DNA of 64,000 bases from Desulfomicrobiaceae bacterium (GTDB taxonomy: Bacteria; Desulfobacterota; Desulfovibrionia; Desulfovibrionales; Desulfomicrobiaceae): NCBI GenBank assembly GCA_041685265.1, contig JAWLGC010000005.1:178-64177 (forward strand). The letters run 5' to 3'. The notes beneath the pieces were generated by a model. It ran no database searches. It was given only the letters and a program-made list of their open reading frames with translations, and was not told the DNA's origin. A program made the translations under genes and the position numbers. Shown piece after piece: positions 26,296 to 41,622 of the stretch (position 1 is the first letter of the stretch; each line of letters starts with the position of its first letter).

Positions 26296-27422
26296 AGGAC
26301 CGCGTCCCTACGCCCTCCTTTGTGGTCGACCTGGGCACCCTCCGGCGCAATCTGGCGGTTCTTGAAACGGTCAAAAAACGAACCGGGTGCCGTATCCTTC
26401 TGGCCCAGAAAGGATTCGCCATGTTTGCGGTCTACCCCCTGCTGGCACGGGTCCTGGACGGGACCTGTGCCAGTTCGCCTCACGAGGCCAGACTGGGGCG
26501 GGAGGAATTCGGGGGTGAGGTGCATGCCTTCGCCGCCGCCTACGGCGAACCGGACATCCGGGAGTTGACCGGAACCTGCGACCACATCGTGTTCAACTCC
26601 TTCGAACAATGGACCCGGTTCCGGGACCCGGTCCTCGGTGCGGACCGGACCATCCGGTGCGGACTGCGCATCAACCCGGAGCACTCGGAAGGGGCCGTGC
26701 CCATCTATGACCCCTGTTCCCCCGGCTCCCGGCTGGGTATCCGGCGCCAGGATTTTCAGGCGAAGGACCTGGACGGGATCTCCGGCCTGCACTTCCACAC
26801 CCTGTGCGAGCAGAATGCCGACGCCCTGGACCGGACCCTGGCCGTGGTGGAGAAAAAGTTCGGGAACATCATGCACCGCATGCAGTGGATCAACTTCGGG
26901 GGAGGGCACCACATCACCCGCGAGGACTACGACATCGAAACCCTTTGCAGATGCATCGAACATATCCAGCGTACCTACGGCGTCACCGTGTACCTGGAAC
27001 CCGGCGAAGCCGTGGCCCTGAATGCGGGCGTGCTGGTCACCGAGGTCCTGGACATGGTCCGCAACCGGGGCGAGATCGCCATCCTGGACACCTCGGCTCC
27101 GGCCCACATGCCCGACGTGCTTGAAATGCCCTATCGCCCCGAGGTGGTCGACGCGTCCCTGCCCGGAAAAAAGAAATGCACCTGCCGGTTGACCGGATTG
27201 TCCTGTCTGGCCGGGGACGTCATCGGAGAGTACTCCTTCGACCACCCTCTGCAGGTGGGGGACCGCCTCCTGTTCCTGGACATGGCCCACTACACCATGG
27301 TCAAGACAACCACCTTCAACGGCGTTAAGCTCCCGTCCATCCTGACCTTTGACCCGGACACGGACGAGCTGCAGCTCATCCGGAAATTCGGATACGAGGA
27401 CTTCAAGGGACGTTTGTCCTGA
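26265..27422 (+). CDS. nspC: Carboxy(nor)spermidine decarboxylase
   Basis: ORF 26025..27422, trimmed to MDRNDT. 'PTPSFVVDLGTLRRN', 'LLAQKGFAM', 'NFGGGHH', 'CLAGDVIG'. Overlaps the upstream gene by 31 nt. Confidence 0.88.
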   Translation: MDRNDTFRKIKDRVPTPSFVVDLGTLRRNLAVLETVKKRTGCRILLAQKGFAMFAVYPLLARVLDGTCASSPHEARLGREEFGGEVHAFAAAYGEPDIRELTGTCDHIVFNSFEQWTRFRDPVLGADRTIRCGLRINPEHSEGAVPIYDPCSPGSRLGIRRQDFQAKDLDGISGLHFHTLCEQNADALDRTLAVVEKKFGNIMHRMQWINFGGGHHITREDYDIETLCRCIEHIQRTYGVTVYLEPGEAVALNAGVLVTEVLDMVRNRGEIAILDTSAPAHMPDVLEMPYRPEVVDASLPGKKKCTCRLTGLSCLAGDVIGEYSFDHPLQVGDRLLFLDMAHYTMVKTTTFNGVKLPSILTFDPDTDELQLIRKFGYEDFKGRLS

Positions 27423-27448
27423 ACCCCGACCCACCAAGGACCACACCC

Positions 27449-28321
27449 ATGCACCCCTATTTTCTGGACTCGGAAATCGAGCAGCCCAGGCCCGAGCAGG
27501 CCCTGTTTCACATCATCTGTGCCCCGTACGAACAGACCGTATCCTACGGCGGGGGAACCGGAAAAGGGCCGGCGGCCATCATCGAGGCCTCCCAGCAGCT
27601 GGAACTCTTCGACGGATTCTCCATCCCGGCCGACGAAGGAATCCACACCCACCCCCCGCTGGCCTGCACCGGATCCGCCGAGCAGGTCCTGGAGGAGATC
27701 CGGGACTGCACAGCCAGAGTGGCCCGATTCGGCAAAGTCCCGGTCCTGCTCGGCGGAGAGCATACCGTGACCTGGGGGGCGCTCAAAGCGCTGCAGGAGA
27801 TCCACGGCACGTTCGGCGTCGTCCAGTTCGATGCCCACGCCGACCTGAGGGACACATACGAAGGCACCCCCTGGAGCCATGCCTGCGTCATGCACCGGGC
27901 CCTGGACCTGGGACTGCCCCTGTTTCAGGTCGGGGTGCGGAGCATGTCCTTTCCTGAAACCGAAGTCAGGACAAGGCACGGGGTAAAATTTGTGGATGGA
28001 TACGAGCTGGGAACAAAGGGGCTTCCCGAGTCGCTGCTGCCCGGAAATTTTCCGGACAAGATCTACGTAACCTTTGACGTGGACGGTCTCGATCCGAGCG
28101 TGATTCCCGGAACAGGAACCCCGGAACCGGGCGGACTGACCTGGTACCAGGCCATGCAGGCCCTGGCCGGGAGCATTGCCGGGAGGACTGTGATCGGGGC
28201 GGACGTGGTCGAACTGGCCCCGATCACGGGAGAGCATGTTTCCGACTTCGCCGCAGCCAGACTGGTTTACAATCTCCTTGGAATGATTCAAAGAAATTCA
28301 AAAAAGAGCGGGAACAGCTGA
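27449..28321 (+). CDS. speB: Agmatinase (ureohydrolase family)
   Basis: 'LGGEHTVT', 'VQFDAHADLRD', 'TFDVDGLDPSVIPGTGTPEPGG', 'ADVVELAP'. Confidence 0.9.
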   Translation: MHPYFLDSEIEQPRPEQALFHIICAPYEQTVSYGGGTGKGPAAIIEASQQLELFDGFSIPADEGIHTHPPLACTGSAEQVLEEIRDCTARVARFGKVPVLLGGEHTVTWGALKALQEIHGTFGVVQFDAHADLRDTYEGTPWSHACVMHRALDLGLPLFQVGVRSMSFPETEVRTRHGVKFVDGYELGTKGLPESLLPGNFPDKIYVTFDVDGLDPSVIPGTGTPEPGGLTWYQAMQALAGSIAGRTVIGADVVELAPITGEHVSDFAAARLVYNLLGMIQRNSKKSGNS

Positions 28322-28485
28322 AAAACGGGTTACATGAAGAAGGATTTATTGTATTTTATGAAATATTCATGTATGTGCTCTCCCGAGACTGTCCAGAACC
28401 GCGACCCGGACCCGGCCGAAGCGACATCGCTTCACGGGTCGATTTTTCCCGTACCGTTTCGGCCTGACCGTGCAAGGAGTTCTCC

Positions 28486-28653
28486 ATGAAAAAATTTCTC
28501 TACGGCTTCTTTACCCTGATCAGCTTGATCCTTCGCTTTTGCAACCGATTTCTGTCTACGATCATCATCTTTCTGGTCCTGCTGGCCACCCTGCTGCTGG
28601 TCGACTGGACCGCGGACACAGTTTTTCCCTTTGTCCGATCCCTTTTCAGCTGA
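28486..28653 (+). CDS. Small hydrophobic protein (55 aa), hypothetical
   Basis: Not in the ORF track because it is under 60 aa. The ATG lies 7 nt after AAGGAG. Translation: MKKFLYGFFTLISLILRFCNRFLSTIIIFLVLLATLLLVDWTADTVFPFVRSLFS. Followed by the terminator at 28740. Confidence 0.45.
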   Translation: MKKFLYGFFTLISLILRFCNRFLSTIIIFLVLLATLLLVDWTADTVFPFVRSLFS

Positions 28654-28676
28654 CCCCGCACATCCGGGATACGCGT

Positions 28677-29066
28677 TCAGGACTCTCCATTGCCGCTGCC
28701 TGTAATTCCCAGGCCCGGCAATCGCCCTCTGACGCTTCGGGCGCCGGATTTTACCGGCGCCTTTTTTTTCTTTTTGGCCCGAGGCAGCCTGCCGAATCGG
28801 TATGAATACAGCGGGCAGGCAGCGTGCAGCCGATACGGTTTCCCTGCCGGGCATTCCCGAACCGCGTCTTCATCTCCGGCGCACTGCAGACAGTATGCCC
28901 GGATCGCCCTGGCAACCACACGTTCGTCCTCACCCGATCCCATCCGGACCGGATGCAGGGGGCACTCCTCATCACAACAGTCTGCGACCCGCGTCCTGCC
29001 GTCTCCCTGGCACCACAGGCAGAACCTGCGGGCGGACCGTGCCGCCGATACCCTTTCTTTTGCCAT
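28677..29066 (-). CDS. Cys-rich hypothetical protein with an internally duplicated zinc-ribbon-like module and a Lys-rich tail
   Basis: ORF 28677..29273(-), trimmed to MAKERV (GGGGAAGGGA upstream). There are two repeats of the pattern (A)xRxxCLxCxG...C...CPL...RxG. Confidence 0.5.
   Translation of the reverse strand: MAKERVSAARSARRFCLWCQGDGRTRVADCCDEECPLHPVRMGSGEDERVVARAIRAYCLQCAGDEDAVRECPAGKPYRLHAACPLYSYRFGRLPRAKKKKKAPVKSGARSVRGRLPGLGITGSGNGES
28740..28769 (+). terminator. Rho-independent terminator (plus strand) lying inside the 3' end of a convergent CDS
   Basis: GGCGCCGG atttta CCGGCGCC followed by T8. Confidence 0.75.
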
Positions 29067-29232
29067 TCCCTTCCCCGTTTGCAGTCCGTTGCAGATCGAC
29101 AAGACACTGCCGTCCGCTTGTTTTCCGCTGCGATTCGTACAGATTACACCAAAAAAGTCCATAGGGAGCCTCTTTCGAGCTGACTCGAATACTTCGTCAA
29201 AAACTGACTCTTCACATCGAACAAAAAAGCCT

Positions 29233-29350
29233 GGAATTATGGGAGATAAGAGGATTAACGGGAGTATTGCCACAAGACAGTAATCCTGTAACCCTGCGAC
29301 GAAGAAGCATAATCCTCTTAATCCTTACGTGGGCATCTGCAGAATTACGT
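29233..29350 (+). other. Conserved noncoding element, copy B
   Basis: See copy A. The core TCCTGTAACCCTGCGAC at 29284..29300 is identical to A, and AGCATAATCCTCTTAATCC is nearly identical. It lies in the divergent intergenic region, 63 nt upstream of the aromatic leader ORF. Confidence 0.55.
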
Positions 29351-29412
29351 CATAAATATGTGCCATCTTTTTCCTTGACAAAACAGATGCCGAAGGAATA
29401 GCCACTGAATTC

Positions 29413-29526
29413 ATGCACAACAAGACCCAGAATATCTCTCTTTTTACCTCCTTTGAAACCAGCCTGTTCTGGTTTTTCTGGTATTTTTATTTTAGAGAGA
29501 CCTGTGGTCTGAAGGGTGCATCATAA
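29413..29526 (+). CDS. Attenuation leader peptide of the aromatic amino acid supraoperon (37 codons)
   Basis: Read manually; too short for the ORF track. Translation: [37 protein letters not shown]. Nine consecutive Phe/Trp/Tyr codons at 29467..29493. An intrinsic terminator starts 30 nt after its stop. Confidence 0.75.
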
Positions 29527-29555
29527 CGTTTTACAAACAACACAGCACACCCAAA

Positions 29556-29588
29556 GGGCCGCAGGCGAAAGCCGGCGGCCCTTTTTTT
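29556..29588 (+). terminator. Attenuator terminator upstream of aroA'
   Basis: GGGCCGCaGGCgaaaGCCgGCGGCCC followed by T7, 50 nt upstream of the aroA' ATG. Confidence 0.85.
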
Positions 29589-29638
29589 GTACCCGAAGAC
29601 CGCCGGCAGCCGGACCCGAAACCTCGGAGGATCGGACC

Positions 29639-30463
29639 ATGCATATAGGCAAAAGCATCAGACTGGAACGAATTTTCAACCGGAACACCGGACGAGCCAT
29701 CATCGTGCCCCTGGACCACGGCACCACTGTCGGCCCCATCTACGGGCTGGTCGATCTTCGGGAGACCGTAAACAAGGTTGCCGAAGGCGGTGCCAACGCG
29801 GTGCTCATGCACAAAGGCCTCCCCCGCTGTTCCCACCGCGGTCACGGCAGGGACGTCGGGCTGATCATCCATATCTCCGCCTCCACCTCCCTGTCCCCCT
29901 TCCCAAACGCCAAGACCCTTGTAGGTACCGTCGAGGATGCCATCCGCCTCGGTGCGGATGCGGTTTCAGTCCATGTCAATATCGGCGACGAAACCGAGGG
30001 ACAGATGCTCCATGACCTGGGGGAAGTAGCCTCCAAAACCACCTCCTGGGGTATGCCCCTTCTGGCCATGGTCTACGCCCGCGGGCCCAAAGTGGAAAAC
30101 GAATACGATCCCGCAGTGGTCGCCCACTGCGCCCGGCTCGGTGAGGAGCTGGGGGCCGACGTGATCAAGGTGGTCTACACCGGAGACAAAGAGTCCTTTG
30201 CCAGGGTCACGGACGGATGCTGCGTGCCCGTGGTCATTGCCGGTGGCCCAAAGATGACCTCCGCCCGGGATATCGTCCAGATGGCCCACGACTCCGTAGA
30301 GGCAGGCGGAGCCGGATTGTCCATGGGAAGGAACATTTTCCAGGCCGAAAACCCGACCCGGCTGGTGCGGGCCCTGAACGCCGTTGTCCACGAAGATTAC
30401 GATGTGGAACAGGCCATGGAACTCCTGAGCGGCCCGGACAGATCCAAAACCATCACCATCTAA
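29639..30463 (+). CDS. 2-amino-3,7-dideoxy-D-threo-hept-6-ulosonate synthase (AroA', class I aldolase/DhnA family)
   Basis: ORF 29516..30463, trimmed to MHIGKS after GGAGG. DhnA-type aldolase sequence with '[10 protein letters not shown]'. Immediately followed by DHQ synthase type II. Confidence 0.8.
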
Positions 30464-30480
30464 GCCGGAGAACCAGTATC

Positions 30481-31452
30481 ATGTCCAAAGAAATCCTGTT
30501 TCTCTGCTCTCCTTTCGACAAGAATCTGCTCACCCTGGCCCTGGAGTCCGGCGTCGACGGTATCATCACCGACACGGCCCATGTGGACGACGTCCGGGCC
30601 CTGGCCCGCTGCCGGGTACTGGACAAAGACGCTTTGACCTGGATCACCCTTGCGGCCAAGGAGGACGAGGAAGCCGCGGTGGAGGCTCTGCAACAGGGCG
30701 ACCTCGCGATCCTGACCTCGGGATGGGAAATCATCCCGGTGGAAAACATCCTGGCCCAGAGCCCGGACCTGGCCGTGGAGGCCGACTCCCTGGCCCAGGC
30801 CAGACTGGCCGCAGGCATTCTGGAGTCCGGAGTAAAAACCGTGGTGGTTCGCCCCGAGGCGGCTGCAGACCTGAAGGACATCGTCAAGGAACTCAAACTG
30901 AGCCAGGGGACCTGTGCATTGGAAACCGCCGTCGTCACCGAAGTCCGTCCCGTGGGCATGGGGCACCGGGTCTGCGTGGACACCATGACCCTGATGTCCA
31001 CGGGCCAGGGAATGCTCGTGGGCAACTCAAGCGCATTCACCTTTCTGGTCCATGCCGAGACCGAGTCCAATCCCTATGTGGCTCCCCGACCGTTTCGCAT
31101 CAACGCCGGAGGCGTCCACGCCTACACCCAGCTTCCAGGAGACAGGACCACCTACCTCGAGGAACTCGAGGCGGGAAGCGAAGTGCTGATCGTAGGGGCC
31201 GACGGCTCCACCACCATGGCCACGGTGGGACGGTGCAAGACGGAAATCCGCCCCATGCTTCTGATCAGGGCCGAGTGCGGCGACCGGCAAGGGACCATTT
31301 TTTTGCAGAACGCAGAGACCATCCGGGTGGTTCGGGAATCGGGCGAGCCGGTCAGCGTGGTCACCCTGGAGCCCGGCGATCGTATTCTGTGCCGCACGGA
31401 CCAGGCCGGACGCCACTTCGGCATGCGCATCACCGAAGAGATCAAGGAATGA
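30481..31452 (+). CDS. 3-dehydroquinate synthase type II (AroB')
   Basis: ORF 30217..31452, trimmed to MSKEILF. About 323 aa, with length and sequence typical of the archaeal-type DHQ synthase. Paired with AroA'. Confidence 0.75.
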   Translation: MSKEILFLCSPFDKNLLTLALESGVDGIITDTAHVDDVRALARCRVLDKDALTWITLAAKEDEEAAVEALQQGDLAILTSGWEIIPVENILAQSPDLAVEADSLAQARLAAGILESGVKTVVVRPEAAADLKDIVKELKLSQGTCALETAVVTEVRPVGMGHRVCVDTMTLMSTGQGMLVGNSSAFTFLVHAETESNPYVAPRPFRINAGGVHAYTQLPGDRTTYLEELEAGSEVLIVGADGSTTMATVGRCKTEIRPMLLIRAECGDRQGTIFLQNAETIRVVRESGEPVSVVTLEPGDRILCRTDQAGRHFGMRITEEIKE

Positions 31453-31456
31453 TGCC

Positions 31457-32569
31457 ATGACCACGACCGCCACCACCGAATCCGTCGCCCGCCTGGCGCG
31501 GATCAGGGCCGAAATCGATGCCCTGGACACCTCCCTGGTGCAGATGCTTTCCTCCCGGGCCGCCCTGTCCCGGGAGGTTGGACAAATCAAGGCCGACAGC
31601 CGGGAAGCAATCTTCAAGCCATTCCGGGAAAAAGAGGTTCTGGACCGACTGGCCCGGCTGGGGGACGGCACGCTGCCTGAAGAACACCTGCGGGCCATCT
31701 ACCGGGAGATCCTGTCCTCCTCCAGGCGGCTGCAGCGACCGCAGAAAGTCGCCTTTCTCGGCCCCGTGGGCACTTTTTCCCATTTCGCCGGGATGGAATA
31801 CCTCGGTCACAGTCTGGAATACGAGCCCAAACGGGACTTCAAGGCGATTTTCTCGGCCGTGGCCGCCCGGGAGGCCGACCTCGGCGTGGTTCCTCTGGAG
31901 AACTCCCTGCACGGCAGCGTGGGGCAGAGCCTGGATCTGTTCCTGCGCTTCGAGGTGTTCATCCAGGCCGAAATCTACTGCAAGATCAGCAACAACCTGC
32001 TCAGCAGGGAGCGCGACCTATCCTCCATCAAGGTGGTCTACTCCCATGCCCAGCCCCTGGCCCAATGCGCCGAATGGCTGCGCACCAATCTCGGCCACGC
32101 CCGGCTCGAGCCGGTGGCGTCCACGGCAGCTGCGGCCCAGCGGGCCGCCGTTGAACCCGGCGCAGCCGCCGTGGGACATCGCAGACTGGCCCCCATGCAC
32201 GACCTGAACATCCTGGCCGGGGCCATCGAGGACCTGCAGGACAACTGGACCCGATTTCTGATCATCGGCCCCACCCCGCCCATGGAAGGGAACCGGGACA
32301 AGACCTCCATCCTGTTCACCCTGCCCGACACCCCCGGAGCACTGGTGAACATCCTCAAGCAGCTGGCCATGGAAGGCATCAACATGAAAAAACTGGAGTC
32401 CCGCCCCCTGCGGTCCGAAAAATGGAAATACGTTTTTTTCGCGGACGTGGAGTGCGACCTGAACATGGACCAATACCAGGAGCTGCTGACCAGCCTCAGG
32501 AACCAGTGCCACACCCTGCGCGTTCTGGGCAGCTATCCTGCCGGACCGTACCTGGACATGGGGGAGTGA
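31457..32569 (+). CDS. pheA: Bifunctional chorismate mutase / prephenate dehydratase (P-protein)
   Basis: N-terminal CM helix 'RIRAEIDALDTSLVQMLSSRAALSREVGQIK', PDT domain 'TRFLIIG', ACT domain 'LESRP'. Confidence 0.92.
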   Translation: MTTTATTESVARLARIRAEIDALDTSLVQMLSSRAALSREVGQIKADSREAIFKPFREKEVLDRLARLGDGTLPEEHLRAIYREILSSSRRLQRPQKVAFLGPVGTFSHFAGMEYLGHSLEYEPKRDFKAIFSAVAAREADLGVVPLENSLHGSVGQSLDLFLRFEVFIQAEIYCKISNNLLSRERDLSSIKVVYSHAQPLAQCAEWLRTNLGHARLEPVASTAAAAQRAAVEPGAAAVGHRRLAPMHDLNILAGAIEDLQDNWTRFLIIGPTPPMEGNRDKTSILFTLPDTPGALVNILKQLAMEGINMKKLESRPLRSEKWKYVFFADVECDLNMDQYQELLTSLRNQCHTLRVLGSYPAGPYLDMGE

Positions 32570-32579
32570 AGGAAACACC

Positions 32580-33911
32580 ATGGAACACGCCAAAATCATC
32601 ATTCAGGCTCCGGCTTCCAAATCCCAGTCTCACCGGGCCCTGATCGCCGCGGCCCTGGCCGAGGGGACCTCGGAACTGACCAGCGTCCTCAAGAGCCAGG
32701 ACCTGGAACGGACCCGGGACTGTCTGACCGCCCTGGGCGCAGATATCACGGAACAGGGGAACAGCCTCACGGTCCGCGGGCTGGGCGGCAGTCATCCCCT
32801 TGCAGGCCGGGTCGAACTCAGAGTCGGCGAATCCGGGACCACCTGCCGGCTGATCATCGGGGTGGCCGCGGCATTCCCGGGGACCGTGCGGGTCTCGGGT
32901 GAAGGACGGATGCACGACCGACCGGTCAGCGACCTGACCGACGCCCTTGCCGCTTTCGGAGCGGAGTTCCTCTTCGAAGAGACGCCGGGCAATCCGCCCC
33001 TGGTCATGACCTCGCCCGGTATTCCCGGAGGGGAGACCGCAGTCAGCCTGGAGCAGAGCAGTCAGTACCTGTCCGGCCTGCTTCTGGGTGCTCCTCTGGG
33101 CCGGGAGCGGGTCCGGATCACCGTGACCGGAAACAAAGTGGTGTCCTGGCCCTATGTCGCCCTGACCCTGGCCATGATGGAGGAGTTCGGCATCCCGGTT
33201 CTGGTGGAAGAACTCCATGGATCCAAGTGGGTTGCCGCAGACTGGAACACCATGACCTCCATCCTGCCGGGCCGGGTCCGGTTCACGGTGGAGCCCGGCA
33301 CATACCGGGCCCGCACCCATCGCGTTGAAGCAGACTGGAGTAATACCTCCTACTTCGTGGCCGCCGGAGCGATCGGGCCGGAGCCGGTGACCATCCTCGG
33401 GGTCAGCCCGAATTCCCTGCAGGGAGACCGGGCCATCGTGGACATCGCCAAAGAGATGGGCGCACGAGTCGAGTGGTCCGACAACGGGCTCACCGTCTCC
33501 CCCGGACTGTTGACCGGCTGCACCCTGGACATGGGCGACTGCCCGGATCTGGTCCCCACCGTGGCCACCATGGCCTGTTTTGCACAGGGACAGACCACCA
33601 TCCGTGGCGTGGCCCACCTGCGGATCAAGGAAAGCGACAGATTGGAAGGGGTCGCCGGCGAACTGCGCAAAACCGGGGCCGCGGTGTCCACTTTTGCCGA
33701 CGGCATGACCATCACCCCGGCTGCCATGCCAGTCGGACTGGCCCTGAATATCCGGACCCACGACGACCACCGGATGGCCATGTCCATGTCCCTCCTGGAA
33801 CTGGGTGGCGTAGCCGTACACCTGGACAATCCCGGATGCGTGGCCAAATCCTTTCCCGGATTCTGGCAGGAATGGGAGAGGGTACGGGAAAACATAAAAA
33901 GAAAAAGCTGA
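32580..33911 (+). CDS. aroA: 3-phosphoshikimate 1-carboxyvinyltransferase (EPSP synthase)
   Basis: 'PASKSQSHRALI', 'RIKESDRL', 'DHRMAMS'. Confidence 0.93.
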   Translation: MEHAKIIIQAPASKSQSHRALIAAALAEGTSELTSVLKSQDLERTRDCLTALGADITEQGNSLTVRGLGGSHPLAGRVELRVGESGTTCRLIIGVAAAFPGTVRVSGEGRMHDRPVSDLTDALAAFGAEFLFEETPGNPPLVMTSPGIPGGETAVSLEQSSQYLSGLLLGAPLGRERVRITVTGNKVVSWPYVALTLAMMEEFGIPVLVEELHGSKWVAADWNTMTSILPGRVRFTVEPGTYRARTHRVEADWSNTSYFVAAGAIGPEPVTILGVSPNSLQGDRAIVDIAKEMGARVEWSDNGLTVSPGLLTGCTLDMGDCPDLVPTVATMACFAQGQTTIRGVAHLRIKESDRLEGVAGELRKTGAAVSTFADGMTITPAAMPVGLALNIRTHDDHRMAMSMSLLELGGVAVHLDNPGCVAKSFPGFWQEWERVRENIKRKS

Positions 33912-33980
33912 CAACAGGCCCAATCGATCTTAATGAATATCATTACCAGATAAGACAACAAGAGAAAGGCAAGAAATCAC

Positions 33981-34748
33981 ATGCTCACCACCGCCACCAT
34001 CGTCGGCTCCGACGGCAAAATGGGAGCCCTGTTCACCAGACTGCTCACCAGGGCCGGAATGACCGTCCGCGGCCTGGACCGCCCCCTCGCCCCCGAGGCC
34101 GTGCGACCGGCCGTGGCCGGAGCCGACCTGGTCGTGCTGGCCGTTCCGGTCCCGGCCATGGACGAGGTCGTGGCCGCGGTGGCCCCGTTCCTGGATCCGT
34201 CCACCATTCTGGCGGACATCTGTTCCCTGAAGACCCTCCCGGTCAAGGCCATGTGTTCCGGATTCGCCGGACCGGTGGTCGGAACCCATCCCCTGTTCGG
34301 CCCCGAACCCGATCCTGCGGACATGACCTGCTGCCTGACCCCGGGGCGGGACGAACACGTTCTGCCCCTTCTTGAGGAGCTGTTCACCGCCTGCGGCATG
34401 ACCCTGTTCACGGCCACGGCCGAGGAACACGACCGGGCCATGGCCTACATCCAGGGACTCAATTTCGTAACCACCCTGTCCTACCTGTCCTGTCTGCCCG
34501 AGGACGTGGACATCGACCGGTTCCTGACCCCGTCCTTCAAACGGCGGCTGAATGCGGCCAAGACCATGGTCACCCGTGATGCGGCTCTGTTCGCGACCCT
34601 GTTTGATTCCAATCCGTACAGCGGAGAGTCCGTGCGCAATTTCCGTTCCTTCCTGAACGTCGCCGCCGGCGGCGATCTCGATCTGCTGACCGAAAAGGCA
34701 CTCTGGTGGTGGCGTACGCCCGAAAACCAGGGAGGACCTCCAGCGTAA
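33981..34748 (+). CDS. tyrA: Prephenate dehydrogenase
   Basis: 'IVGSDGKMG' dinucleotide fold, 'THPLFGPE', 'EEHDRAMAYIQGL'. Confidence 0.85.
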   Translation: MLTTATIVGSDGKMGALFTRLLTRAGMTVRGLDRPLAPEAVRPAVAGADLVVLAVPVPAMDEVVAAVAPFLDPSTILADICSLKTLPVKAMCSGFAGPVVGTHPLFGPEPDPADMTCCLTPGRDEHVLPLLEELFTACGMTLFTATAEEHDRAMAYIQGLNFVTTLSYLSCLPEDVDIDRFLTPSFKRRLNAAKTMVTRDAALFATLFDSNPYSGESVRNFRSFLNVAAGGDLDLLTEKALWWWRTPENQGGPPA

Positions 34749-34765
34749 CTACATGAAATGCATAC

Positions 34766-34804
34766 AAAAAGCGCCAGAGTCTCCCGGACCTGGCGCTTTT
34801 TTTT
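34766..34804 (+). terminator. Strong intrinsic terminator between tyrA and trpE, internal to the supraoperon
   Basis: A5, then GCGCCAGaGTC tcccg GACCTGGCGC, then T8. 10 bp with one bulge. Confidence 0.85.
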
Positions 34805-34862
34805 ATCCCCTGTTCACCGCAACCAAACCATGCAAACCTTACAACCTCATTCCGGAGCCCCC

Positions 34863-36275
34863 ATGAATATCACCCTCACCCAGCAGGGAGAATGGCTGCA
34901 GGCGGATACCCAGACGCCCATCTCTCTGTACCTGAACCTGGTCGGAGCCAAAAAGGGCATCCTGCTGGAAAGTTCGGAAGTGGACGGGCGACTGGGCAGG
35001 TACAGCCTCATCGCCTGGGACTTCAAAATGACCCTGACCGCACGTGACGGCAGGCTGGACATGCACGTAACCGACCCGAGACTCGAGGGCCTGCTCGAGC
35101 ACCAGGGCGCTGAGTACCTGTCCGGTATCCGGAGCATTCTCAAGGACCTGACCGTCGCACCACCCGAGGACATTTCCGGTCTTCCGCCCATGACCCGCTC
35201 CCTGTGCGGTTTTTTCGCCTACAACACCGGCGGCATGTTCGAACCTGCTCTGGCCGAGGTTCTGCCGCCGGATCAGGCCGAGACCACCCTGGTCCTGCCC
35301 GGCCAGGTCATCCTGTTCGATCATCTCCACCACCGATGCTGCCATCTCTCCCTGGACGGCAGCAAAATCCGTTTCCGCCCCCGCCCCGGTCAGACCCCGG
35401 AGCCGACCTTCGGCCCGGTCACGGCTACCCCGACAAAAGAGGCCTTCATGGACGGTGTGCGCCGGGCGAAAGAACTCATCACCCAGGGTGAAGTCATCCA
35501 GATCGTCCTCTCCACCCAGTTCTCAACATCCTTTTCCGGGGACCCTTTTGAACTGTACCGCAGGCTGCGCCAGATCAACCCGTCGCCGTACACGTTTTAT
35601 ATGAACCTTCCGGACATCACCCTGCTCGGCTCATCCCCGGAGCTTATGGTCAAATGCACCGACGGCACCGTGGAGCTGCGCCCCATCGCCGGGACCCGGG
35701 TTCGGGGGGCTTCTCCGGCCGAAGACCGAGAACTGGGCGAAGACCTGCTGGCCGACCCCAAGGAACGGGCCGAGCATGTCATGCTCGTAGACCTCGGGCG
35801 TAACGACCTGGGGAGGGTGGCCCGCCCGGGGACGGTCAAACTGGATCAATACATGCAAGTGGAGATGTTCTCCCATGTCATGCACCTGACCTCCTACATC
35901 TCGGCCCTGGTCCGCCCGGAACTGGACGCCATCGATGTGCTCAAGGCCGCGTTCCCGGCCGGAACCGTGAGCGGGGCTCCCAAAATCCGGGCCATGCAGA
36001 TCATCGCCGAAAAGGAGACCGTGGATCGCGGGCCCTATGCCGGATGTATAGGCTGGCTGGGACTGGATTCGGACCAGGTCCAGATGGATACCGGAATCAC
36101 GATCCGGTCCCTGTGGATCAAGGATTCCACCCTGTACTGGCAGTCCGGTGCAGGCATCGTGTTCGATTCCGACCCCGAAAAGGAATGGCAGGAATGCCAC
36201 AACAAGTCCCGGGCCACGGTCCAGGCCATCAGCCAGAGAGGAGGCACCGATGATTTTGTGCATAGACAACTTTGA
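34863..36275 (+). CDS. trpE: Anthranilate synthase component I
   Basis: ORF 34758..36275, trimmed to MNITL (GGAG 7 nt upstream). 'GAPKIRAMQII', 'RGPYAGCIGW'. Confidence 0.93.
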   Translation: MNITLTQQGEWLQADTQTPISLYLNLVGAKKGILLESSEVDGRLGRYSLIAWDFKMTLTARDGRLDMHVTDPRLEGLLEHQGAEYLSGIRSILKDLTVAPPEDISGLPPMTRSLCGFFAYNTGGMFEPALAEVLPPDQAETTLVLPGQVILFDHLHHRCCHLSLDGSKIRFRPRPGQTPEPTFGPVTATPTKEAFMDGVRRAKELITQGEVIQIVLSTQFSTSFSGDPFELYRRLRQINPSPYTFYMNLPDITLLGSSPELMVKCTDGTVELRPIAGTRVRGASPAEDRELGEDLLADPKERAEHVMLVDLGRNDLGRVARPGTVKLDQYMQVEMFSHVMHLTSYISALVRPELDAIDVLKAAFPAGTVSGAPKIRAMQIIAEKETVDRGPYAGCIGWLGLDSDQVQMDTGITIRSLWIKDSTLYWQSGAGIVFDSDPEKEWQECHNKSRATVQAISQRGGTDDFVHRQL

Positions 36276-36861
36276 TTCCTTTACTTTCAACCTGGTTCAG
36301 GTTTTTCAGCAACTCGGAACCGATCCTGTTGTCCTTCGTAACAACGACCCCCGAATTCTGGACCTGGCCAGAGACCTGGCTCTCAGCGGCGTGATCATCT
36401 CCCCGGGCCCCGGGCACCCCAGGGATGCCGGATTGTGTCTGGAATTTCTGAAACGGCTTCCGCTCCACATCCCGGTCCTCGGGGTCTGCCTGGGACACCA
36501 GGTCCTCGGGGTGCATGCCGGAGCCGAGGTGTCCGGGGCCGGCCGGATCATGCACGGCAAGTCCTCACGCATCGAGCATGACGGGCAGGGGCTTTTTGCC
36601 GGACTGCCTCAAAACATGGAAGTGGCCCGGTATCATTCCCTTATCGTGCATGGAGACGGGGGCGACATCTTCGAGGTCACCTGCCGGACCGAATCCGGGG
36701 AACCCATGGGGCTCCGTTTTCTGGACCGCCCCTGGAGGGGAGTCCAGTTTCATCCGGAATCCATCCTGACCCCCCAGGGGCCCGGTCTCCTGGCCAACTT
36801 CCTGAACATGTGCAACGAACCGACCCAGGCCCCTCAACCGGGCCTGCAGGAGACAATATGA
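36250..36861 (+). CDS. trpG: Anthranilate synthase component II (glutamine amidotransferase)
   Basis: 'MILCIDNFDSFT', 'GVCLGHQ', 'VQFHPES'. Overlaps trpE by 26 nt. Confidence 0.93.
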   Translation: MILCIDNFDSFTFNLVQVFQQLGTDPVVLRNNDPRILDLARDLALSGVIISPGPGHPRDAGLCLEFLKRLPLHIPVLGVCLGHQVLGVHAGAEVSGAGRIMHGKSSRIEHDGQGLFAGLPQNMEVARYHSLIVHGDGGDIFEVTCRTESGEPMGLRFLDRPWRGVQFHPESILTPQGPGLLANFLNMCNEPTQAPQPGLQETI

Positions 36862-37859
36862 CCACCATTCATCAGACCCTGAACGACCTCGCCACAGGCA
36901 ACAACCTGGCTTCCGAACAGAGCCGGGAGATCTTCACCGCCCTGCTGACGGGCCGGCTGACCCCGGCCCAGAGCGGCGCCCTGCTCATGGGGCTGTCCGC
37001 CAAAGGGGAAACCCCGGATGAGCTCGGCGCGGCCGTGGACGCGGCCATGTCTCAGGCCCGCCTCGTGCCCGATCTCACCGGCAAGCGCATCGATACCTGC
37101 GGCACGGGCGGCGACGGCAAGAAGAGCTTCAACTGCTCGACCGCCGTGGCCCTGTTTCTGGCCGACCTCGGCCACCAGGTGGTCAAGCACGGCAACCGGG
37201 CCGTCTCCAGCCAGTGCGGATCGGCCGATGTGGTGGAGAGCCTGGGCTACCCCCTGGTGGACGACCCCGCCCTGGTGGCCGAGGAGCTGCGCAAACGGAA
37301 CTTCGTGTTTCTGTTCGCCCCCCACTTTCATCCCGCCTTCAAACATGTGGCTCCCATTCGCCAGGAACTCAGGATCCGGACCCTGTTCAACCTCATGGGC
37401 CCCCTTCTGAATCCGGCCGAGCCCACCCACCAGATCATCGGCATCCCCAATCCGCAGTTCGCCCCCATGCTGGCCAGGGTCCTGGTCAAGCGCAAGGAAC
37501 TGACTGCGGCCATCGTACATGGTGCAGGCGGCTTCGACGAAGTCACCCCGTGCGGCACCTCGAGCGTTCTCTACGTGGACCGGGGCAAGACCCGCTCCTG
37601 CTTCATCGTTCCCCGGGAGCTCGGTATCTCCCTGTGCAAGCCCGAAGAGCTGATCTGCCCCACCAAAAAAGAGGCCCTGGCCATGCAGACCGCCATCCTG
37701 ACCGGCAACGCCCCAAAAGCGGTCAAGGACATGGTCGCCCTGAACCTGGGGCTGGCCCTGCACCTCCTGGAAGACGACCTGACCCTCAAAGAGGGCGTGG
37801 ATCAGGCCCTGGAGGCCCTGAACTGCGGGCTGCGCCGGGGGAGCGAATATGCTGCTTGA
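36858..37859 (+). CDS. trpD: Anthranilate phosphoribosyltransferase
   Basis: 'DTCGTGGDG', 'KHGNRAVSS'. ATGA overlap with the trpG stop. Confidence 0.93.
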   Translation: MTTIHQTLNDLATGNNLASEQSREIFTALLTGRLTPAQSGALLMGLSAKGETPDELGAAVDAAMSQARLVPDLTGKRIDTCGTGGDGKKSFNCSTAVALFLADLGHQVVKHGNRAVSSQCGSADVVESLGYPLVDDPALVAEELRKRNFVFLFAPHFHPAFKHVAPIRQELRIRTLFNLMGPLLNPAEPTHQIIGIPNPQFAPMLARVLVKRKELTAAIVHGAGGFDEVTPCGTSSVLYVDRGKTRSCFIVPRELGISLCKPEELICPTKKEALAMQTAILTGNAPKAVKDMVALNLGLALHLLEDDLTLKEGVDQALEALNCGLRRGSEYAA

Positions 37860-38634
37860 TCGCTTCGCCGCCGCCAAGGAACCGGAGATCAGCGCTCTCA
37901 AGGCCCTCGAAACCATCGGCACCCTGCCCGTTCCCCTGTCCTGCGTGCGCCCTTCTTTTTCAGGGGCGCTGCGGGGCAGGGGCCCGGGGGCCGTCATCGC
38001 CGAGTACAAACGGGCCTCCCCGTCCAAAGGCGTCATCAACACAGAGCTCGGTCCCGAAGAGGTCACTGCGGCCTACAAAGCCGGCGGAGCAGCGGCCCTG
38101 TCCGTGCTTACCGAAGAGGAGCACTTTGCCGGGTCCCTTGAATACCTGAAGCCGGCTGCGAACACCGGGCTCCCCGTACTGCGCAAGGATTTCATCCTGC
38201 ACCCCCTGCAGATCCGGGCCACTGCCGCCACCGAGGCGTCGGCCCTGCTGCTTATCGCCCGGATGGTGGATACCGCCGAACAGCTTGCGGCCATGATCGC
38301 CCTCACCCAGGAGCTGGGCATGGAGGCCGTGGTGGAGATCTTTGACCAGGCCGACCTGGACAAGGCCGGAGCCGCCGGAGCAACCATTATCCAGGTCAAC
38401 AACCGGGACCTGGACACCCTGGCCATCGACCTGAACACCTCCCTGCAGTTCATCAAGCAGCGAAAGGATGGCGAGCTATGGATCGCGGCCAGCGGTATCA
38501 CCACTCCTGAAGACGCCGAAAAGATGCGGGCAGCCGGATTCGACGGACTGCTCATGGGCACGGTGCTCATGCAGAACGGCACTCCGGGCGAAACCCTGCG
38601 GACCTTCACGGCCGGAGCAACGGCAGATGGCTAG
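37849..38634 (+). CDS. trpC: Indole-3-glycerol phosphate synthase
   Basis: 'IAEYKRASPSKG', 'QVNNRDL'. Confidence 0.92.
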   Translation: MLLDRFAAAKEPEISALKALETIGTLPVPLSCVRPSFSGALRGRGPGAVIAEYKRASPSKGVINTELGPEEVTAAYKAGGAAALSVLTEEEHFAGSLEYLKPAANTGLPVLRKDFILHPLQIRATAATEASALLLIARMVDTAEQLAAMIALTQELGMEAVVEIFDQADLDKAGAAGATIIQVNNRDLDTLAIDLNTSLQFIKQRKDGELWIAASGITTPEDAEKMRAAGFDGLLMGTVLMQNGTPGETLRTFTAGATADG

Positions 38635-39265
38635 CCCGAAGATCCCGGAACACCGCCCCCTGATCAAGGTCTGCGGCATGACCCGGGCAGAGGATCTCAA
38701 GGCGTGCAGGGAGGCCGGAGTGGACCTGACCGGGTTCATCTTTCACCCGGGAAGCCCTCGATTCGTTACCCCGGAGCAGGCCGCCGGGCTGCCCCGGGTG
38801 GGACTGCGGGTAGGAGTGTTTGTTTCCCAGTCGGCGGAAGAAGTCCGGGAAATCATGAACACGGCCGACCTGGACCTGGCCCAGCTGCATGGAAAGCAGG
38901 ACAAGGAGTTCTGCAGGGCGGTAGGCAAAGACCGGGCCATCAGGGTGTTCTGGCCTGCCGGGTATGACTCGGTTAAAGAGTTGAACCGGGACCTGACGAG
39001 ATTCGCTCCGGTGTGCCGCATGTTTCTGCTGGACAGCGGTACCGGTGGAGGCGGACACGGGACGGCTATTGACTGGAGCGGATTACAAGGACTTGAGACA
39101 GAACGCCCCTGGCTGTTGGCGGGCGGGCTGACGCCCGGGACCGTTGCCGAGGCCCTGAGAACATGCAGCCCGGACGGACTGGACCTGAATTCGGGGCTGG
39201 AATCGTCGCCCGGATGCAAGGAGGCAGAATTGATCAGGACGGCTGTGAAGGCCTCCGGCAGGTAG
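38627..39265 (+). CDS. trpF: Phosphoribosylanthranilate isomerase
   Basis: ORF 38468..39265, trimmed to MASPKIP. 'IKVCGMT'. Overlaps the trpC stop. Confidence 0.88.
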   Translation: MASPKIPEHRPLIKVCGMTRAEDLKACREAGVDLTGFIFHPGSPRFVTPEQAAGLPRVGLRVGVFVSQSAEEVREIMNTADLDLAQLHGKQDKEFCRAVGKDRAIRVFWPAGYDSVKELNRDLTRFAPVCRMFLLDSGTGGGGHGTAIDWSGLQGLETERPWLLAGGLTPGTVAEALRTCSPDGLDLNSGLESSPGCKEAELIRTAVKASGR

Positions 39266-39311
39266 CATTTCACCTCTGGCCCACACAAACTCGCCAAACC
39301 AGGCCCCTCTT

Positions 39312-39380
39312 CCTTCGCGCCTCTTCGCGTCCTTCGCGGTAAGATTCTTTCACCGCGAAGGACGCGAAGGAATGCGAAGG
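39312..39380 (+). repeat. Long perfect hairpin built from CTTCGCG repeats between trpF and trpB
   Basis: CTTCGCGTCCTTCGCGGT (39323..39340), an 11-nt loop, then ACCGCGAAGGACGCGAAG (39352..39369): 18 bp perfect. Extended by CCTTCGC/GCGAAGG across an internal loop. No T tract. Confidence 0.8.
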
Positions 39381-39474
39381 GGGAATTTGAGCAGCGATGC
39401 GTAATTTCTGTTCGTTATAGAGCTGACGTCAATATTGCACTTTGACACCTTAACAACCAATTTCGAGAACAACC

Positions 39475-40704
39475 ATGACCTCTCAATCAAAAATCGAACG
39501 CTACTTCGGCCCCCACGGGGGGCGATATGTGCCCGAGATGCTGGTTCCGGCCCTTGAGGAACTCGAGGAAGCCTATGCGGCGGCCAAAGCCGATCCGCAG
39601 TTCCAGGCCGAACTGAACACCCTCTTCGCCACCTATTCCGGCCGCCCCACCCCCCTGACCTATGCAGGAAACCTCACCGAGGAACTCGGCGGGTGCAAAA
39701 TCTATCTGAAGATGGAAGGGCTCAATCACACCGGGGCTCACAAGATCAACAACGCCCTGGGCCAGGGTCTGCTGGCCAAGAAGATGGGGAAAAACCGGCT
39801 CATCGCCGAGACAGGTGCCGGCCAGCACGGCGTGGCCACGGCCACTGTGGCGGCCAAACTGGGCATGAAGTGCACCGTGTTCATGGGGGAAGTGGACATC
39901 CGCCGCCAGTACCCCAACGTCTATTCCATGAAACTCCTCGGAGCCGAAGTGGTCCCGGTCACCTCAGGGACGAAAACCCTCAAAGACGCGGTCAACGAGG
40001 CCCTCAAACACTGGATCGGCCACCTTGATGACACCCACTACCTGATCGGCTCGGCCCTCGGCCCCGCTCCGTATCCGGCCATGGTCCGGGATTTCCAGTC
40101 CGTGATCGGCAACGAGGCCCGTGCCCAGCTGCAGGAGGCCGAAGGTCGCCTTCCCGATCATCTCGTGGCCTGCGTGGGCGGCGGCTCCAACTCCATCGGG
40201 CTGTTCCATCCTTTCCTGCACGACACCAGGGTGGCCATGCACGGAGCCGAGGCAGGCGGACGCGGGGACGAACCCGGAGAACATGCGGCCCGGTTCCTCG
40301 ACCCCAAAATCGGCATCGTCCAGGGATACAAATCCTATTTTCTCCAGGACGAGCATGGACAGGTCCAGGCCACCCATTCCGTAAGCGCCGGCCTCGACTA
40401 CGCCGGAATCGGTCCGGAACTGGCCAGGCTGCAGGATATCGACCGGGTCGCCTTTACGGCCGTACGGGACACCGAGGCCCTGAGCGCGTTCAAACTCCTG
40501 TGCCGCACCGAAGGGATCATCCCGGCCCTGGAATCCTCCCACGCCGTGGCCCTGGCCTGCAGACTGGCACCCACCCGGCCCAAGGATGAGATCATGGTCG
40601 TGAACATCTCCGGCCGGGGTGACAAGGACATCTTCATCACGGCCAGGGCCCTGGACCGGGACAACTGGATCGAATTTCTTCGCTCGGAGGTGCAGTATGT
40701 GTAA
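39475..40704 (+). CDS. trpB: Tryptophan synthase beta chain
   Basis: 'HTGAHKINN', 'GGGSNSIG', 'AETGAGQHG'. Confidence 0.95.
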
Positions 40705-41461
40705 CCCCCTTTCCGCTCTTTTTGAAAATGAGGCGCCGGTCCGGATCATGACCCATGTGGTGGCCGGATTTCCGGATCTGGACACGACCCGGCAGCTGGT
40801 CAAAACCATGGCCGCATGCGGCGTGAGCTGCATCGAGATCCAGATCCCTTTTTCCGACCCCCTGGCCGACGGCCCGACCATCATGAAGGCCAGCCAGCAT
40901 GCCCTGGACCATGGAGTCACCCCTAAGGACTGCTTTACCCTGGCCCGGGAATTGAGTGCCGAAGTCGACATACCGCTTCTGTTTATGACCTACGCCAACA
41001 TTCCCTACGCCATGGGGGTTGAAAAATTTGTGCGCCGGAGCGCGGAGGCCGGCATCAGGGGGCTGATCATCCCGGACATGGCCTTTGACGAAGAGAACTA
41101 CGCCCCGACGGCCAGGAAGCATGGACTGTGTCCGATCCAGGTTCTCTCTCCGACCATGCGGCAGGACAGACTACGGAAGATCCTTTCCCACGGTCACGGA
41201 TTCGTGTATACAACCCTGAAAACCGGAATCACCGGGGCCGGCAGTTCCATTGCCCATGAGGGCATCGAGTTCATACACCGGGTCAAGGAGCTTTCCAACC
41301 TGCCTGTAGCGGCCGGATTCGGAATTTCCGCCCCCGAGCATGTCCGTCAGGTCATGGAAGTGGCCGATATGGCCGTCATCGGCAGCCACGTCATCAACCT
41401 GTTTTCAAAACACGGCATGGAGGCGGTCTCCGAATTTCTGAAGGAATGTACCAAAAAGTGA
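40697..41461 (+). CDS. trpA: Tryptophan synthase alpha chain
   Basis: ORF 40619..41461, trimmed to MCNPL (overlaps the trpB stop). '[17 protein letters not shown]'. Confidence 0.9.
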
Positions 41462-41622
41462 CGCAAAAAAGGGTGCTGGCCCAACAGATCCGGGCGCATT
41501 ATTTCAATTTTGTCAAAACCGACAAAAAATCCTTCCTTTTTGCACACATTTTTGTAAACTCAGTATGTTACCCGGAAGCACCGTTTCGAGCAACATTTTG
41601 AATTAAAAAAGAAATTAGAGGT

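Follow-up and report, generated by a model that had tools for sequence, protein, structure and literature searches.

A probable leader-peptide attenuator with mixed Phe, Trp, and Tyr codons, and a candidate second attenuator at the end of tyrA, on the aromatic supraoperon of a Desulfomicrobiaceae bacterium

The 12-gene aromatic supraoperon of a Desulfomicrobiaceae bacterium (GenBank assembly GCA_041685265.1, contig JAWLGC010000005.1) probably begins with a ribosome-mediated, leader-peptide transcription attenuator that is the first of two acting in series. The DNA that we analyzed, hereafter the window, covers 64 kb of this contig (positions 178 to 64,177 of the forward strand). The first element, termed gate 1, consists of a 37-codon open reading frame (ORF) with nine successive aromatic codons and of an intrinsic terminator in front of aroA', and sequence comparison makes its assignment as a leader-peptide attenuator very likely. 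For the second element, gate 2, which lies between tyrA and trpE, we favor a role as a Trp-sensing attenuator, with less assurance and from the same kind of data. More tentatively still, we propose that the trp half of the operon is under an attenuator that has no separate leader peptide and that, together with the probably leaderless tri-aromatic leader, forms a two-gate circuit conserved across the Desulfovibrionales. In sulfate reducers, aromatic amino acids are synthesized through the archaeal-type ADH/DHQ-II route, the regulation of which is, to our knowledge, essentially unstudied.

Six-frame translation of the whole window revealed FWFFWYFYF as its only aromatic run of more than four codons, the next-longest having four. 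The longest run was 3 to 5 codons in 60 first-order Markov simulations of the window and 5 codons in 5,000 base shuffles of the leader ORF. All 12 genes downstream (aroA', aroB', pheA, aroA, tyrA, and trpEGDCFBA, followed by glnA) were confirmed by NCBIfam, and the products of the operon, Phe, Tyr, and Trp, match the amino acids of the leader codons. The gene upstream of the leader, a small Cys-rich ORF on the opposite strand, is divergent, so the gate 1 terminator does not close another gene. Translation, folding, and homology bore out what the initial annotation had described from the letters alone, namely, the short ORF, its aromatic run, the terminator with its run of seven T residues, the position of the first biosynthetic gene, and the 12-gene supraoperon. 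Public gene calls contain the leader ORF, without a name or a Pfam family, and an exact look-up of 10 leader peptides returned the window's own peptide, nameless, as the sole match.

We fetched 80 aroA' loci from GTDB representative genomes, covering Desulfovibrionales and Desulfobacterales, and found a short ORF with a dense aromatic run ∼100 to 130 nucleotides (nt) upstream of aroA' in 73 of them. The aromatic run that the earlier reading had singled out is thus conserved in orthologous upstream regions, as illustrated by the leaders of Desulfomicrobium (MTNFSLNHSLYFFWYFYFSRACGLRGLL), Solidesulfovibrio (MQSLANLTSGFYFWFWFSHARGQGGVRSN), Desulfocicer (MSNFQNQKGPDYFYSYYCFFGFFSWLCGLDGGG), and Pseudodesulfovibrio (MTHNSARFFFFFSFNDRNACGLGVR). 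The closest aroA' relatives, at 80 to 85% amino acid identity, come from metagenome-assembled genomes labeled Desulfomicrobium, Desulfomicrobiaceae, or Desulfovibrionaceae; proteins identical to those of the window turned up in metagenome assemblies alone. A terminator that hardly varies in sequence stands behind each leader ORF, and the motif GGCCGC-D-GGC N3-9 GCCGGCGGCC was found once in the window (0 expected) and once per locus in 79 fetched loci, always just upstream of aroA'. Spacing is conserved among 55 unique leaders: 6 nt separate the end of the run from the antiterminator core in 43 of them, the stop codon follows the core after 12 to 24 nt, and the terminator starts 26 to 40 nt past the stop codon. 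Insertions and deletions in the leaders preserve the frame; compared to its relatives, the window leader carries a 9-codon insertion that adds two Phe codons. When leaders of equal length were grouped, the variable columns of the run were distributed 3/16/20 over codon positions 1/2/3, against 30/27/30 in the N-terminal part before the run, and 18 of the 22 variable run codons remained within Phe, Trp, and Tyr. This bias, confined to the run, argues for selection on the identity of aromatic codons and not on a particular RNA sequence or peptide.

We analyzed the RNA structures that such a leader should form. Folding of positions 29400 to 29600 gave −63.9 kcal/mol (z = −4.8), with the terminator hairpin as the dominant local structure; a simple terminator pattern scanner had missed this hairpin because of its internal A·G mismatch. 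In an alignment of 57 sequences, 92.5% of the terminator cells were paired, with 3 covarying pairs. The 5' arm of the terminator is shared with an antiterminator, whose core pairs with positions 29556 to 29565 over 10 bp, including 3 G-U, as the initial annotation had suggested. In the window, this helix is lengthened by pairing of GGGUG (29514-18) with CACCC (29548-52), and the antiterminator is the minimum-energy fold (−26.1 kcal/mol) when the 5' part of the leader is masked and the 3' arm of the terminator is not yet made. The peptide tail ACG(L/P) of the relatives corresponds to an RNA strand, GCCUGYGGYC, that is the complement of the terminator 5' arm. Covariation analysis on the orthologous leaders, which had been called for at the outset together with folding, supported the pairing. 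The ten core pairs were ∼95% or more paired, none of 500 shuffles reached the covariation score of core plus extension, and versions of the antiterminator slid by 1 to 3 columns had at most 45% of cells paired, compared to 79.6% for the true register. The column of A29563 is mismatched within the terminator in 47 of the 57 sequences yet paired with the antiterminator strand in all of them (U-A 32, C-G 15, U-G 6, A-U 4, unpaired 0) and is therefore kept for the antiterminator, not for the terminator. We also evaluated the extension helix (alignment columns 38 to 44 with 92 to 98) as a family-wide feature and rejected it, as it was just 40 to 70% paired; it is claimed for the window alone.

The third structural element is a strand, segment 1, that can sequester the antiterminator strand, segment 2. 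On the whole-leader MAFFT alignment, RNAalifold found nothing beyond the terminator and one trivial 3-bp stem, since sequence alignment does not bring segment 1 into register, and per-sequence duplex tests were used for this pairing. Across the 55 unique leaders, the 1:2 duplex had a median energy of −20.3 kcal/mol and a median z of −2.9. In 42 of them, the segment 1 partner ends −2 to +6 nt from the first aromatic codon, and a segment 1 beside the run is the classical site for masking by a stalled ribosome. A cmscan search of positions 27000 to 45000 against Rfam (E ≤ 1) gave chance matches alone, with no leader family (Trp_leader, Phe_leader, or others) and no T-box.

We then examined how the leader is likely to be transcribed and translated. 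A perfect TTGACA is present upstream of 55 of 56 unique leaders, and its first T lies 36 to 40 nt from the leader ATG in 57 of 58 leaders, which is the spacing of a −35 hexamer to the transcription start. The earlier proposal of a perfect −35 hexamer with a start near the ATG fits this spacing, and we predict a start at ∼29409 to 29413, which would leave a 5' untranslated region of ∼0 to 4 nt. A GGAG or GAGG sequence at −18 to −4 of the start codon was found for 1 of 55 leader ORFs versus 54 of 55 aroA' genes. Because of the position of TTGACA and the lack of a Shine-Dalgarno (SD) sequence, the leader transcript is probably leaderless, which would account for the weak SD sequence noted earlier: there is indeed no real one, and the GAAGGAA that had been taken for a weak or distant SD sequence sits inside the promoter spacer. 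Leaderless leader ORFs have mycobacterial precedents (bioRxiv 10.1101/834739). In the Desulfomicrobium loci L001 to L013, but not in the window, a palindrome TGACC-N5-GGTCA in an A-rich context is located ∼10 to 25 nt upstream of the −35 hexamer and may be a candidate transcription factor binding site.

We propose that gate 1 works as follows. Transcription would begin at, or a few bases from, the leader ATG, and the leader would be translated as the polymerase nears the terminator. A shortage of charged tRNA-Phe, tRNA-Trp, or tRNA-Tyr would make the ribosome stall in the nine-codon run and thereby block the re-pairing of segments 1 and 2. Segment 2 (CCUGUGGUCU plus GGGUG) could then capture the emerging 5' arm of the terminator, allowing read-through into aroA'-aroB'-pheA-aroA-tyrA. 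With all three plentiful, the ribosome would reach the stop codon and cover the 3' part of segment 2, segment 1 would re-pair behind it, and the terminator would form. We infer from the comparison that the leader is translated, that its start is leaderless, and that ribosomes stall on it and respond to each of the three aromatic amino acids.

Several observations weigh against this model of gate 1. In the window, the terminator, once complete, gives a more stable fold than the antiterminator does (−38.2 versus −28.5 kcal/mol), and gate 1 must therefore act kinetically. A ribosome at the leader stop codon would cover just the 3' end of segment 2. In the window, segment 1 sits 35 nt upstream of the run because of the 9-codon insertion, and it pairs with the antiterminator core no more stably than shuffled sequences do (z −0.1); this part of the structure is weaker in the window than in the relatives. 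Finally, the compared sequences share ancestry, and the counts overstate the number of independent events. The assignment of gate 1 as a ribosome-mediated attenuator, already made in the initial annotation, nevertheless draws support from the conserved leader, terminator, and geometry, the covariation, the interchange of aromatic codons, and the agreement of codon content with the downstream genes described below.

The trp genes had been thought to be gated by simple read-through from this leader. This view did not hold, as tyrA and trpE are separated by a second intrinsic terminator (−22.8 kcal/mol), with three Trp codons ahead of it. This terminator had been overlooked because the longest trpE ORF runs through it. 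We rejected this 505-codon ORF, which starts at position 34758, as a longest-ORF artifact that is off by 105 nt: TrpE homology starts at the ATG at 34863, which is preceded by the SD sequence GGAG. The same over-extension is found in the public gene calls of a Desulfonatronum contig (L086), where trpE is called at 515 amino acids (aa).

TyrA ends in ALWWWRTPENQGGPPA, and the last tyrA codons contain a G-rich strand, CCAGGGAGGACCUCCAGCGU, that pairs with positions 34771 to 34787 (the 5' arm and loop of the terminator) at −18 to −20.4 kcal/mol. A part of this strand, GGGAGGA (34730 to 34736), resembles an SD sequence, and its partner at 34782 to 34787 (CUCCC / CCUCC) resembles the anti-SD of 16S rRNA. 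The same 12 genes were found in four full operons (Desulfobaculum, a Desulfohalobiaceae isolate, Desulfonatronum, and a Desulfomicrobium-like metagenome-assembled genome), three of which have a strong terminator in the annotated tyrA-trpE gap and a TyrA that ends in ALWWWR followed by 8 to 10 residues. Among 120 TyrA homologues (47 to 100% identity), WW(W) was present near the C terminus in 118, and the W run was 9 or 11 residues from the C terminus in 97.

We sorted the unique tyrA 3' junctions drawn from 85 loci into three classes. Where a gap of at least 70 nt precedes trpE, WWW was found in 32/32 junctions and a terminator 18 to 46 nt past the tyrA stop in 29/32. Where tyrA abuts trpE (10 junctions), 8 had just WW and none had a terminator; the third class, without trpE downstream, is considered below. 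A G-rich tract, usually Gly-Gly codons 5 to 15 nt before the tyrA stop, finds its match in the pyrimidine-rich upper part of the cognate terminator (GGGAGGAC with GUCCUCCC; GGGGGAGGAAA with UUUCCUCCCCC). In a clade with a 4-residue TyrA tail, the matching strand, GGACGCGGC, is located just past the stop codon and pairs with GCCGCGUCC, and the distance from the W run to the antiterminator strand is ∼11 to 17 nt in both layouts. Mean pairing was −22.8 kcal/mol for cognate strands versus −18.4 kcal/mol for non-cognate ones, and none of 10,000 random re-pairings was as good.

These data suggest that the position of the ribosome at the end of tyrA would govern the internal terminator. The sensor would be the last 14 codons of TyrA, comprising WWW, an unstructured spacer of 9 to 11 codons, and the G-rich antiterminator strand overlapping the stop codon. 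By default, ribosomes ending tyrA would occupy the G-rich strand at the stop, the terminator would form, and the trp genes would be off. When Trp-tRNA is scarce, ribosomes would stall at WWW, 15 nt upstream of the G-rich strand, which would be left to pair with the 5' arm and loop of the terminator, and the polymerase would continue into trpEGDCFBA. In such a circuit, the genes of the common pathway and of Phe and Tyr synthesis would answer any aromatic shortage, while the trp genes would additionally need a shortage of Trp. A possible excess of Trp codons in leaders whose loci lack the internal terminator could be looked for in 2 unique leaders only.

A different explanation of the internal element, which we find unlikely although it accounts for several of our results, is that WWW is structural in this clade of TyrA proteins and that the hairpin is a partial terminator or an mRNA-stabilizing stem fixing the ratio of the two operon halves. 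In keeping with this explanation and counting against a Trp sensor, WWW is retained in TyrA proteins without trpE downstream (8 unique junctions), and its middle W is invariant. An AlphaFold model of TyrA (pLDDT 91) places WWW at the end of the last predicted helix (residues 233 to 244), followed by a tail of low confidence; the closest solved structure, 2pv7, aligns with TyrA just to residue 208. The model thus indicates that WWW may be at least partly structural. The 2:3 pairing of gate 2 is also modest when compared to mononucleotide shuffles (median z −1.6), and a 1:2 structure was no better than shuffles (median z +0.8) and was dropped from the model; such a helix may not be needed, since tyrA is always translated. 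A purely structural role is harder to reconcile with the loss of the third W in 8 of the 10 junctions that leave no room for a terminator, with a spacing between the W run and the G-rich strand that is maintained even where the stop codon is displaced, with the coevolution of the G-rich strand and its own terminator, and with a TyrA tail of 9 to 11 residues that is predicted to be unstructured and varies in sequence except for the G-rich codons. We regard a part of the W motif as a structural element that was recruited for sensing, and the spacer and the G-rich strand as regulatory.

Two further observations concern the region downstream of tyrA. In several human gut and other metagenome contigs (L140 to L143, L150 to L152, and similar loci), TyrA ends in AQWWWKEAR, followed by a 25-bp G/C-rich perfect hairpin and no trp genes; in this clade, WWW has therefore outlived the linkage to trpE. 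In L111 and L114, AT-rich DNA carrying unrelated ORFs breaks a Desulfomicrobium-type operon immediately past tyrA, replacing the terminator and trpE, and looks like an insertion.

Returning to gate 1, we looked into the codon content of the leaders in relation to the genes that follow. The 43 unique leaders located before aroA'(-aroA')-aroB'-pheA-aroA... all contain Trp codons (43/43), with means of ∼4 to 6 Phe, 1.5 Trp, and 2 to 3 Tyr. The 14 unique leaders that precede only aroA'-pheA and then a convergent gene are rich in Phe and Tyr, with 0 or 1 Trp (a doubtful call, L068, has 2), and the 4 unique leaders before a solitary aroA' paralogue, followed by an unrelated mltC-like gene, have Phe only. 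These groups are phylogenetically clustered and represent few independent events; nevertheless, the codon content appears to track the downstream genes, as a codon-based sensor predicts.

The solitary aroA' paralogues, found in Pseudodesulfovibrio and one other lineage (L021, L024, L033, L047, and L073), stand behind leaders such as ARFFFFFSF or ASFFFFFFFF, located ∼100 nt upstream of position 3001 of these loci and sharing the same terminator/antiterminator core. By analogy with the DAHP synthase isozymes of E. coli, this arrangement suggests a Phe-specific isozyme. Tandem aroA' pairs, 64 to 70% identical to the window protein, lie between leader and aroB' in some Desulfovibrionaceae (L023, L025, L034, L035, L054, L070, and L077). 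Some long-operon leaders are atypical: two are W-rich (…TYWSSNWWIRLKGVCG…, …LAAWMWSYWWTSQRGVCG…) and one is degenerate (…VFAYGYYQHGSCGP…; loci L071, L080, and L051), and they may have a shifted specificity.

Gate 1 could also be a real attenuator that senses Phe alone, or Phe and one other amino acid, with Trp and Tyr codons tolerated, given their second-base difference from TTY, or serving RNA structure. Phe is the commonest residue in most leaders, and Trp control is already supplied by gate 2. Furthermore, at the Corynebacterium glutamicum aroR leader (Phe-Tyr-Phe), derepression resulted solely from Phe limitation (PMC11802643), and sensing of all three amino acids by gate 1 therefore cannot be assumed. 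We consider this narrower specificity improbable in view of the distribution of Trp codons, which are present in every unique long-operon leader, absent before solitary aroA', and rare before aroA'-pheA, and because W or Y predominates in some leaders of the long operon (L071, L080, L041, and L126).

That the short ORF is untranslated and belongs to a ligand- or protein-binding leader RNA (riboswitch, T-box-like, or TRAP-like) or to a small RNA ending at the terminator is very hard to sustain. The strong structure of the leader RNA, its unusually conserved terminator sequence, and the lack of an SD sequence would suit such an RNA. However, essentially all relatives have an in-frame ATG at a constant spacing from the promoter, along with a stop codon in the same frame 12 to 24 nt past the antiterminator, substitutions in the run alter bases and retain aromatic codons, insertions and deletions keep the frame, codon content agrees with the downstream genes, and no Rfam family, T-box and known leaders included, was matched at E ≤ 1. 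We give equally little credence to the peptide itself being the effector, as a TnaC-like nascent-chain arrest peptide sensing free amino acids or as a small hydrophobic protein with its own function, a notion prompted by the conserved tail motif ACG(L/P)xG and by known trans-acting leader peptides (peTrpL; PMC7298713) but countered by the facts that the tail is the antiterminator strand base for base and covaries with the terminator arm, that the N terminus evolves without codon-position bias, and that leader length and composition vary widely.

Classical attenuators have leader peptides that are rich in codons for the regulated amino acid and rely on ribosome stalling. Like E. coli trpL, gate 1 combines a short ORF in the leader, carrying regulatory codons in tandem, with an intrinsic terminator ahead of the first structural gene; it would likewise form 1:2, 2:3, and 3:4 hairpins that exclude one another, and stalling would favor the antiterminator. 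It differs from trpL by its nine mixed codons in place of two Trp codons, by its probably leaderless start in place of an SD-led one, by the control of common-pathway, Phe, and Tyr genes as well, and by the lack of a sequence or structure match to the Rfam Trp_leader. In E. coli pheL/pheA (Rfam Phe_leader; PMC3082878), a leader rich in Phe codons gates a chorismate mutase/prephenate dehydratase by termination and antitermination. Unlike gate 1, pheL governs one gene and its regulatory codons are all for Phe, and the Phe-only relatives described here govern a lone ADH synthase rather than pheA. Among aromatic leaders, the precedent closest to gate 1 is C. glutamicum aroR, upstream of aroF, where a mixed aromatic leader gates the first common-pathway enzyme by stalling (Neshat et al. 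2014, as summarized in PMC11802643). In contrast to gate 1, aroR has three regulatory codons, none for Trp, was shown to respond to Phe only, and precedes a DAHP synthase instead of an ADH synthase; the two sequences are unrelated. Leaders with codons for several end products of a branched pathway are exemplified by E. coli ilvL (Ile/Val/Leu) and thrL (Thr/Ile), which serve the branched-chain or Thr pathways and include no aromatic three-way case. The mycobacterial leaderless polycysteine short ORFs (bioRxiv 10.1101/834739) are likewise leader ORFs at transcript 5' ends that act as amino acid-responsive attenuators, although they use Cys codons, belong to another phylum, and do not necessarily work through an intrinsic terminator. 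As an attenuator, gate 1 is of the classical trpL/pheL type with a multivalent leader, outside all curated Rfam families.

Gate 2 has partial parallels in three systems. In the aromatic supraoperon of Bacillus subtilis, the trp genes are also embedded in a larger operon with their own internal Trp-specific terminator/antiterminator switch (aroH-trpE), but the sensor there is TRAP, the Trp-activated RNA-binding protein (mentioned in PMC7755916 and PMC10327191), whereas gate 2 would use the ribosome ending tyrA. In E. coli rph-pyrE, whether an intercistronic terminator forms depends on how the 3' end of the full-length gene upstream is translated, but UTP is sensed via polymerase-ribosome coupling and not via tRNA charging at specific codons. 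In Chlamydia trachomatis YtgCR (PMC7755916), WWW in a real protein gene ties Trp supply to downstream transcription via stalling and Rho-independent termination. There, stalling causes termination and acts on trpBA indirectly, via a repressor, while at gate 2 stalling would prevent termination and act directly on trpE. By analogy, gate 2 would be a combination of the internal Trp switch of the TRAP system, the full-length gene as a leader of rph-pyrE, and the WWW sensor of YtgCR.

The mixed leader had been called unusual, which holds with respect to the E. coli models but not within Desulfobacterota, where it is widespread and where an attenuator of Desulfovibrio vulgaris was already listed in 2005. 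Song et al. (PMC1173090), in the portion of the article accessible to us, recorded a putative attenuator, drawn from the prediction site of Merino, in front of aroA' > aroB' > pheA > aroF > tyrA > [trp operon]; that portion describes neither a leader peptide nor an internal element. Aromatic genes are not treated in Rodionov 2004 (PMC545781), and our search for literature on tyrA/trpE attenuators and on leader peptides of Deltaproteobacteria found nothing relevant. We found no description of the leader peptide family, of the internal switch, or of the combination of known ideas that it embodies; Merino/Jensen/Yanofsky 2008 or Price 2011 may hold one.

Our analysis provides a concrete and testable control model for aromatic biosynthesis in sulfate reducers, in which no transcription factor is needed. 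The leader family also constitutes a natural experiment in attenuator specificity, with a single terminator/antiterminator chassis and swappable sensor codons (F/W/Y, F/Y, or F only). Should the tyrA switch prove real, the last codons of an ordinary enzyme gene can serve as an attenuator leader; such switches would escape searches for small upstream ORFs, and attenuation inside operons may be undercounted. For annotation, the longest-ORF rule misplaces the trpE start and conceals the internal terminator, and public records leave the leader peptides unnamed. The features of both elements and the genes of the operon are listed in Table 1.

Table 1. Coordinates of the putative regulatory features and of the operon genes in the window
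Feature	Position	Strand	Basis
−35 hexamer TTGACA of the leader promoter, T/A-rich tract before it	29375..29380	+	perfect match, conserved
Weak −10-like element (AATAGC / TAGCCA)	29397..29404	+	TA(G/C)-containing hexamer 16-18 nt past TTGACA in relatives
Leader peptide ORF, 37 codons plus stop	29413..29526	+	translation
Segment 1 (anti-antiterminator strand), AGACCCAG and UCUCUCU	29423..29441	+	minimum-energy folds; pairs with segment 2 when ribosome is absent
Putative sensor, nine successive aromatic codons FWFFWYFYF (5 Phe, 2 Trp, 2 Tyr)	29467..29493	+	translation
Segment 2 (antiterminator strand), AGAGAGA, core CCUGUGGUCU (29501-29510), extension GGGUG (29514-29518); encodes ...RETCGLKG...	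29494..29518	+	folds, alignment
Segment 3, CACCC, AAA, and terminator 5' arm GGGCCGCAGGC	29548..29566	+	pairs with segment 2
Intrinsic terminator, 11-bp G+C-rich stem with one conserved mismatch, GAAA loop, T7; hairpin GGGCCGCAGGC-GAAA-GCCGGCGGCCC (29556..29581), T7 (29582..29588)	29556..29588	+	folding, alignment
First operon block, aroA' to tyrA	29639..34748	+	NCBIfam; gene calls in identical metagenome contigs
aroA' (ADH synthase)	29639-30463	+	NCBIfam
aroB' (DHQ synthase II)	30481-31452	+	NCBIfam
pheA (CM/PDT, chorismate mutase/prephenate dehydratase)	31457-32569	+	NCBIfam
aroA (EPSP synthase)	32580-33911	+	NCBIfam
tyrA (prephenate dehydrogenase)	33981-34748	+	NCBIfam
Proposed internal sensor, three Trp codons (TGG TGG TGG) in the TyrA C-terminal tail ...DLLTEKALWWWRTPENQGGPPA, 11 codons before stop	34704..34712	+	translation
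Internal antiterminator strand CCAGGGAGGACCUCCAGCGU, last tyrA codons up to stop TAA (34746-34748)	34727..34746	+	folding
Internal intrinsic terminator, tyrA-trpE, AAAAAGCGCCAG-AGUCUCCCGGAC-CUGGCGCUUUUU, T-run to 34804	34766..34804	+	folding energy (see text)
Second operon block, trpE-trpG-trpD-trpC-trpF-trpB-trpA	34863..41461	+	NCBIfam; start of TrpE homology
trpF	ends 39265	+	NCBIfam
trpB	39475-40704	+	NCBIfam
trpA	ends 41461	+	NCBIfam

Other features were noticed around and within the operon. The small Cys-rich ORF (MAKERVSAARSARRFCLWCQGDG...) that diverges from the leader promoter occupies positions ∼28751 to 29107 of the minus strand. Six-frame ORFs overlapping it on both strands had no Pfam or NCBIfam match, and a strong terminator (28739 to 28762, plus strand) is located at its 3' end. 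The trpF-trpB gap (39266 to 39474) contains a near-perfect hairpin of ∼31 bp at 39308 to 39384, with CUUCGCG-like repeats and a fold z of −7.1; it has no T-run and no second copy in the window. A TTGACA is also present at 39442 to 39447, 33 nt upstream of the trpB ATG, and the gap could hold an element for mRNA processing or stability, an internal promoter of trpBA, or both.

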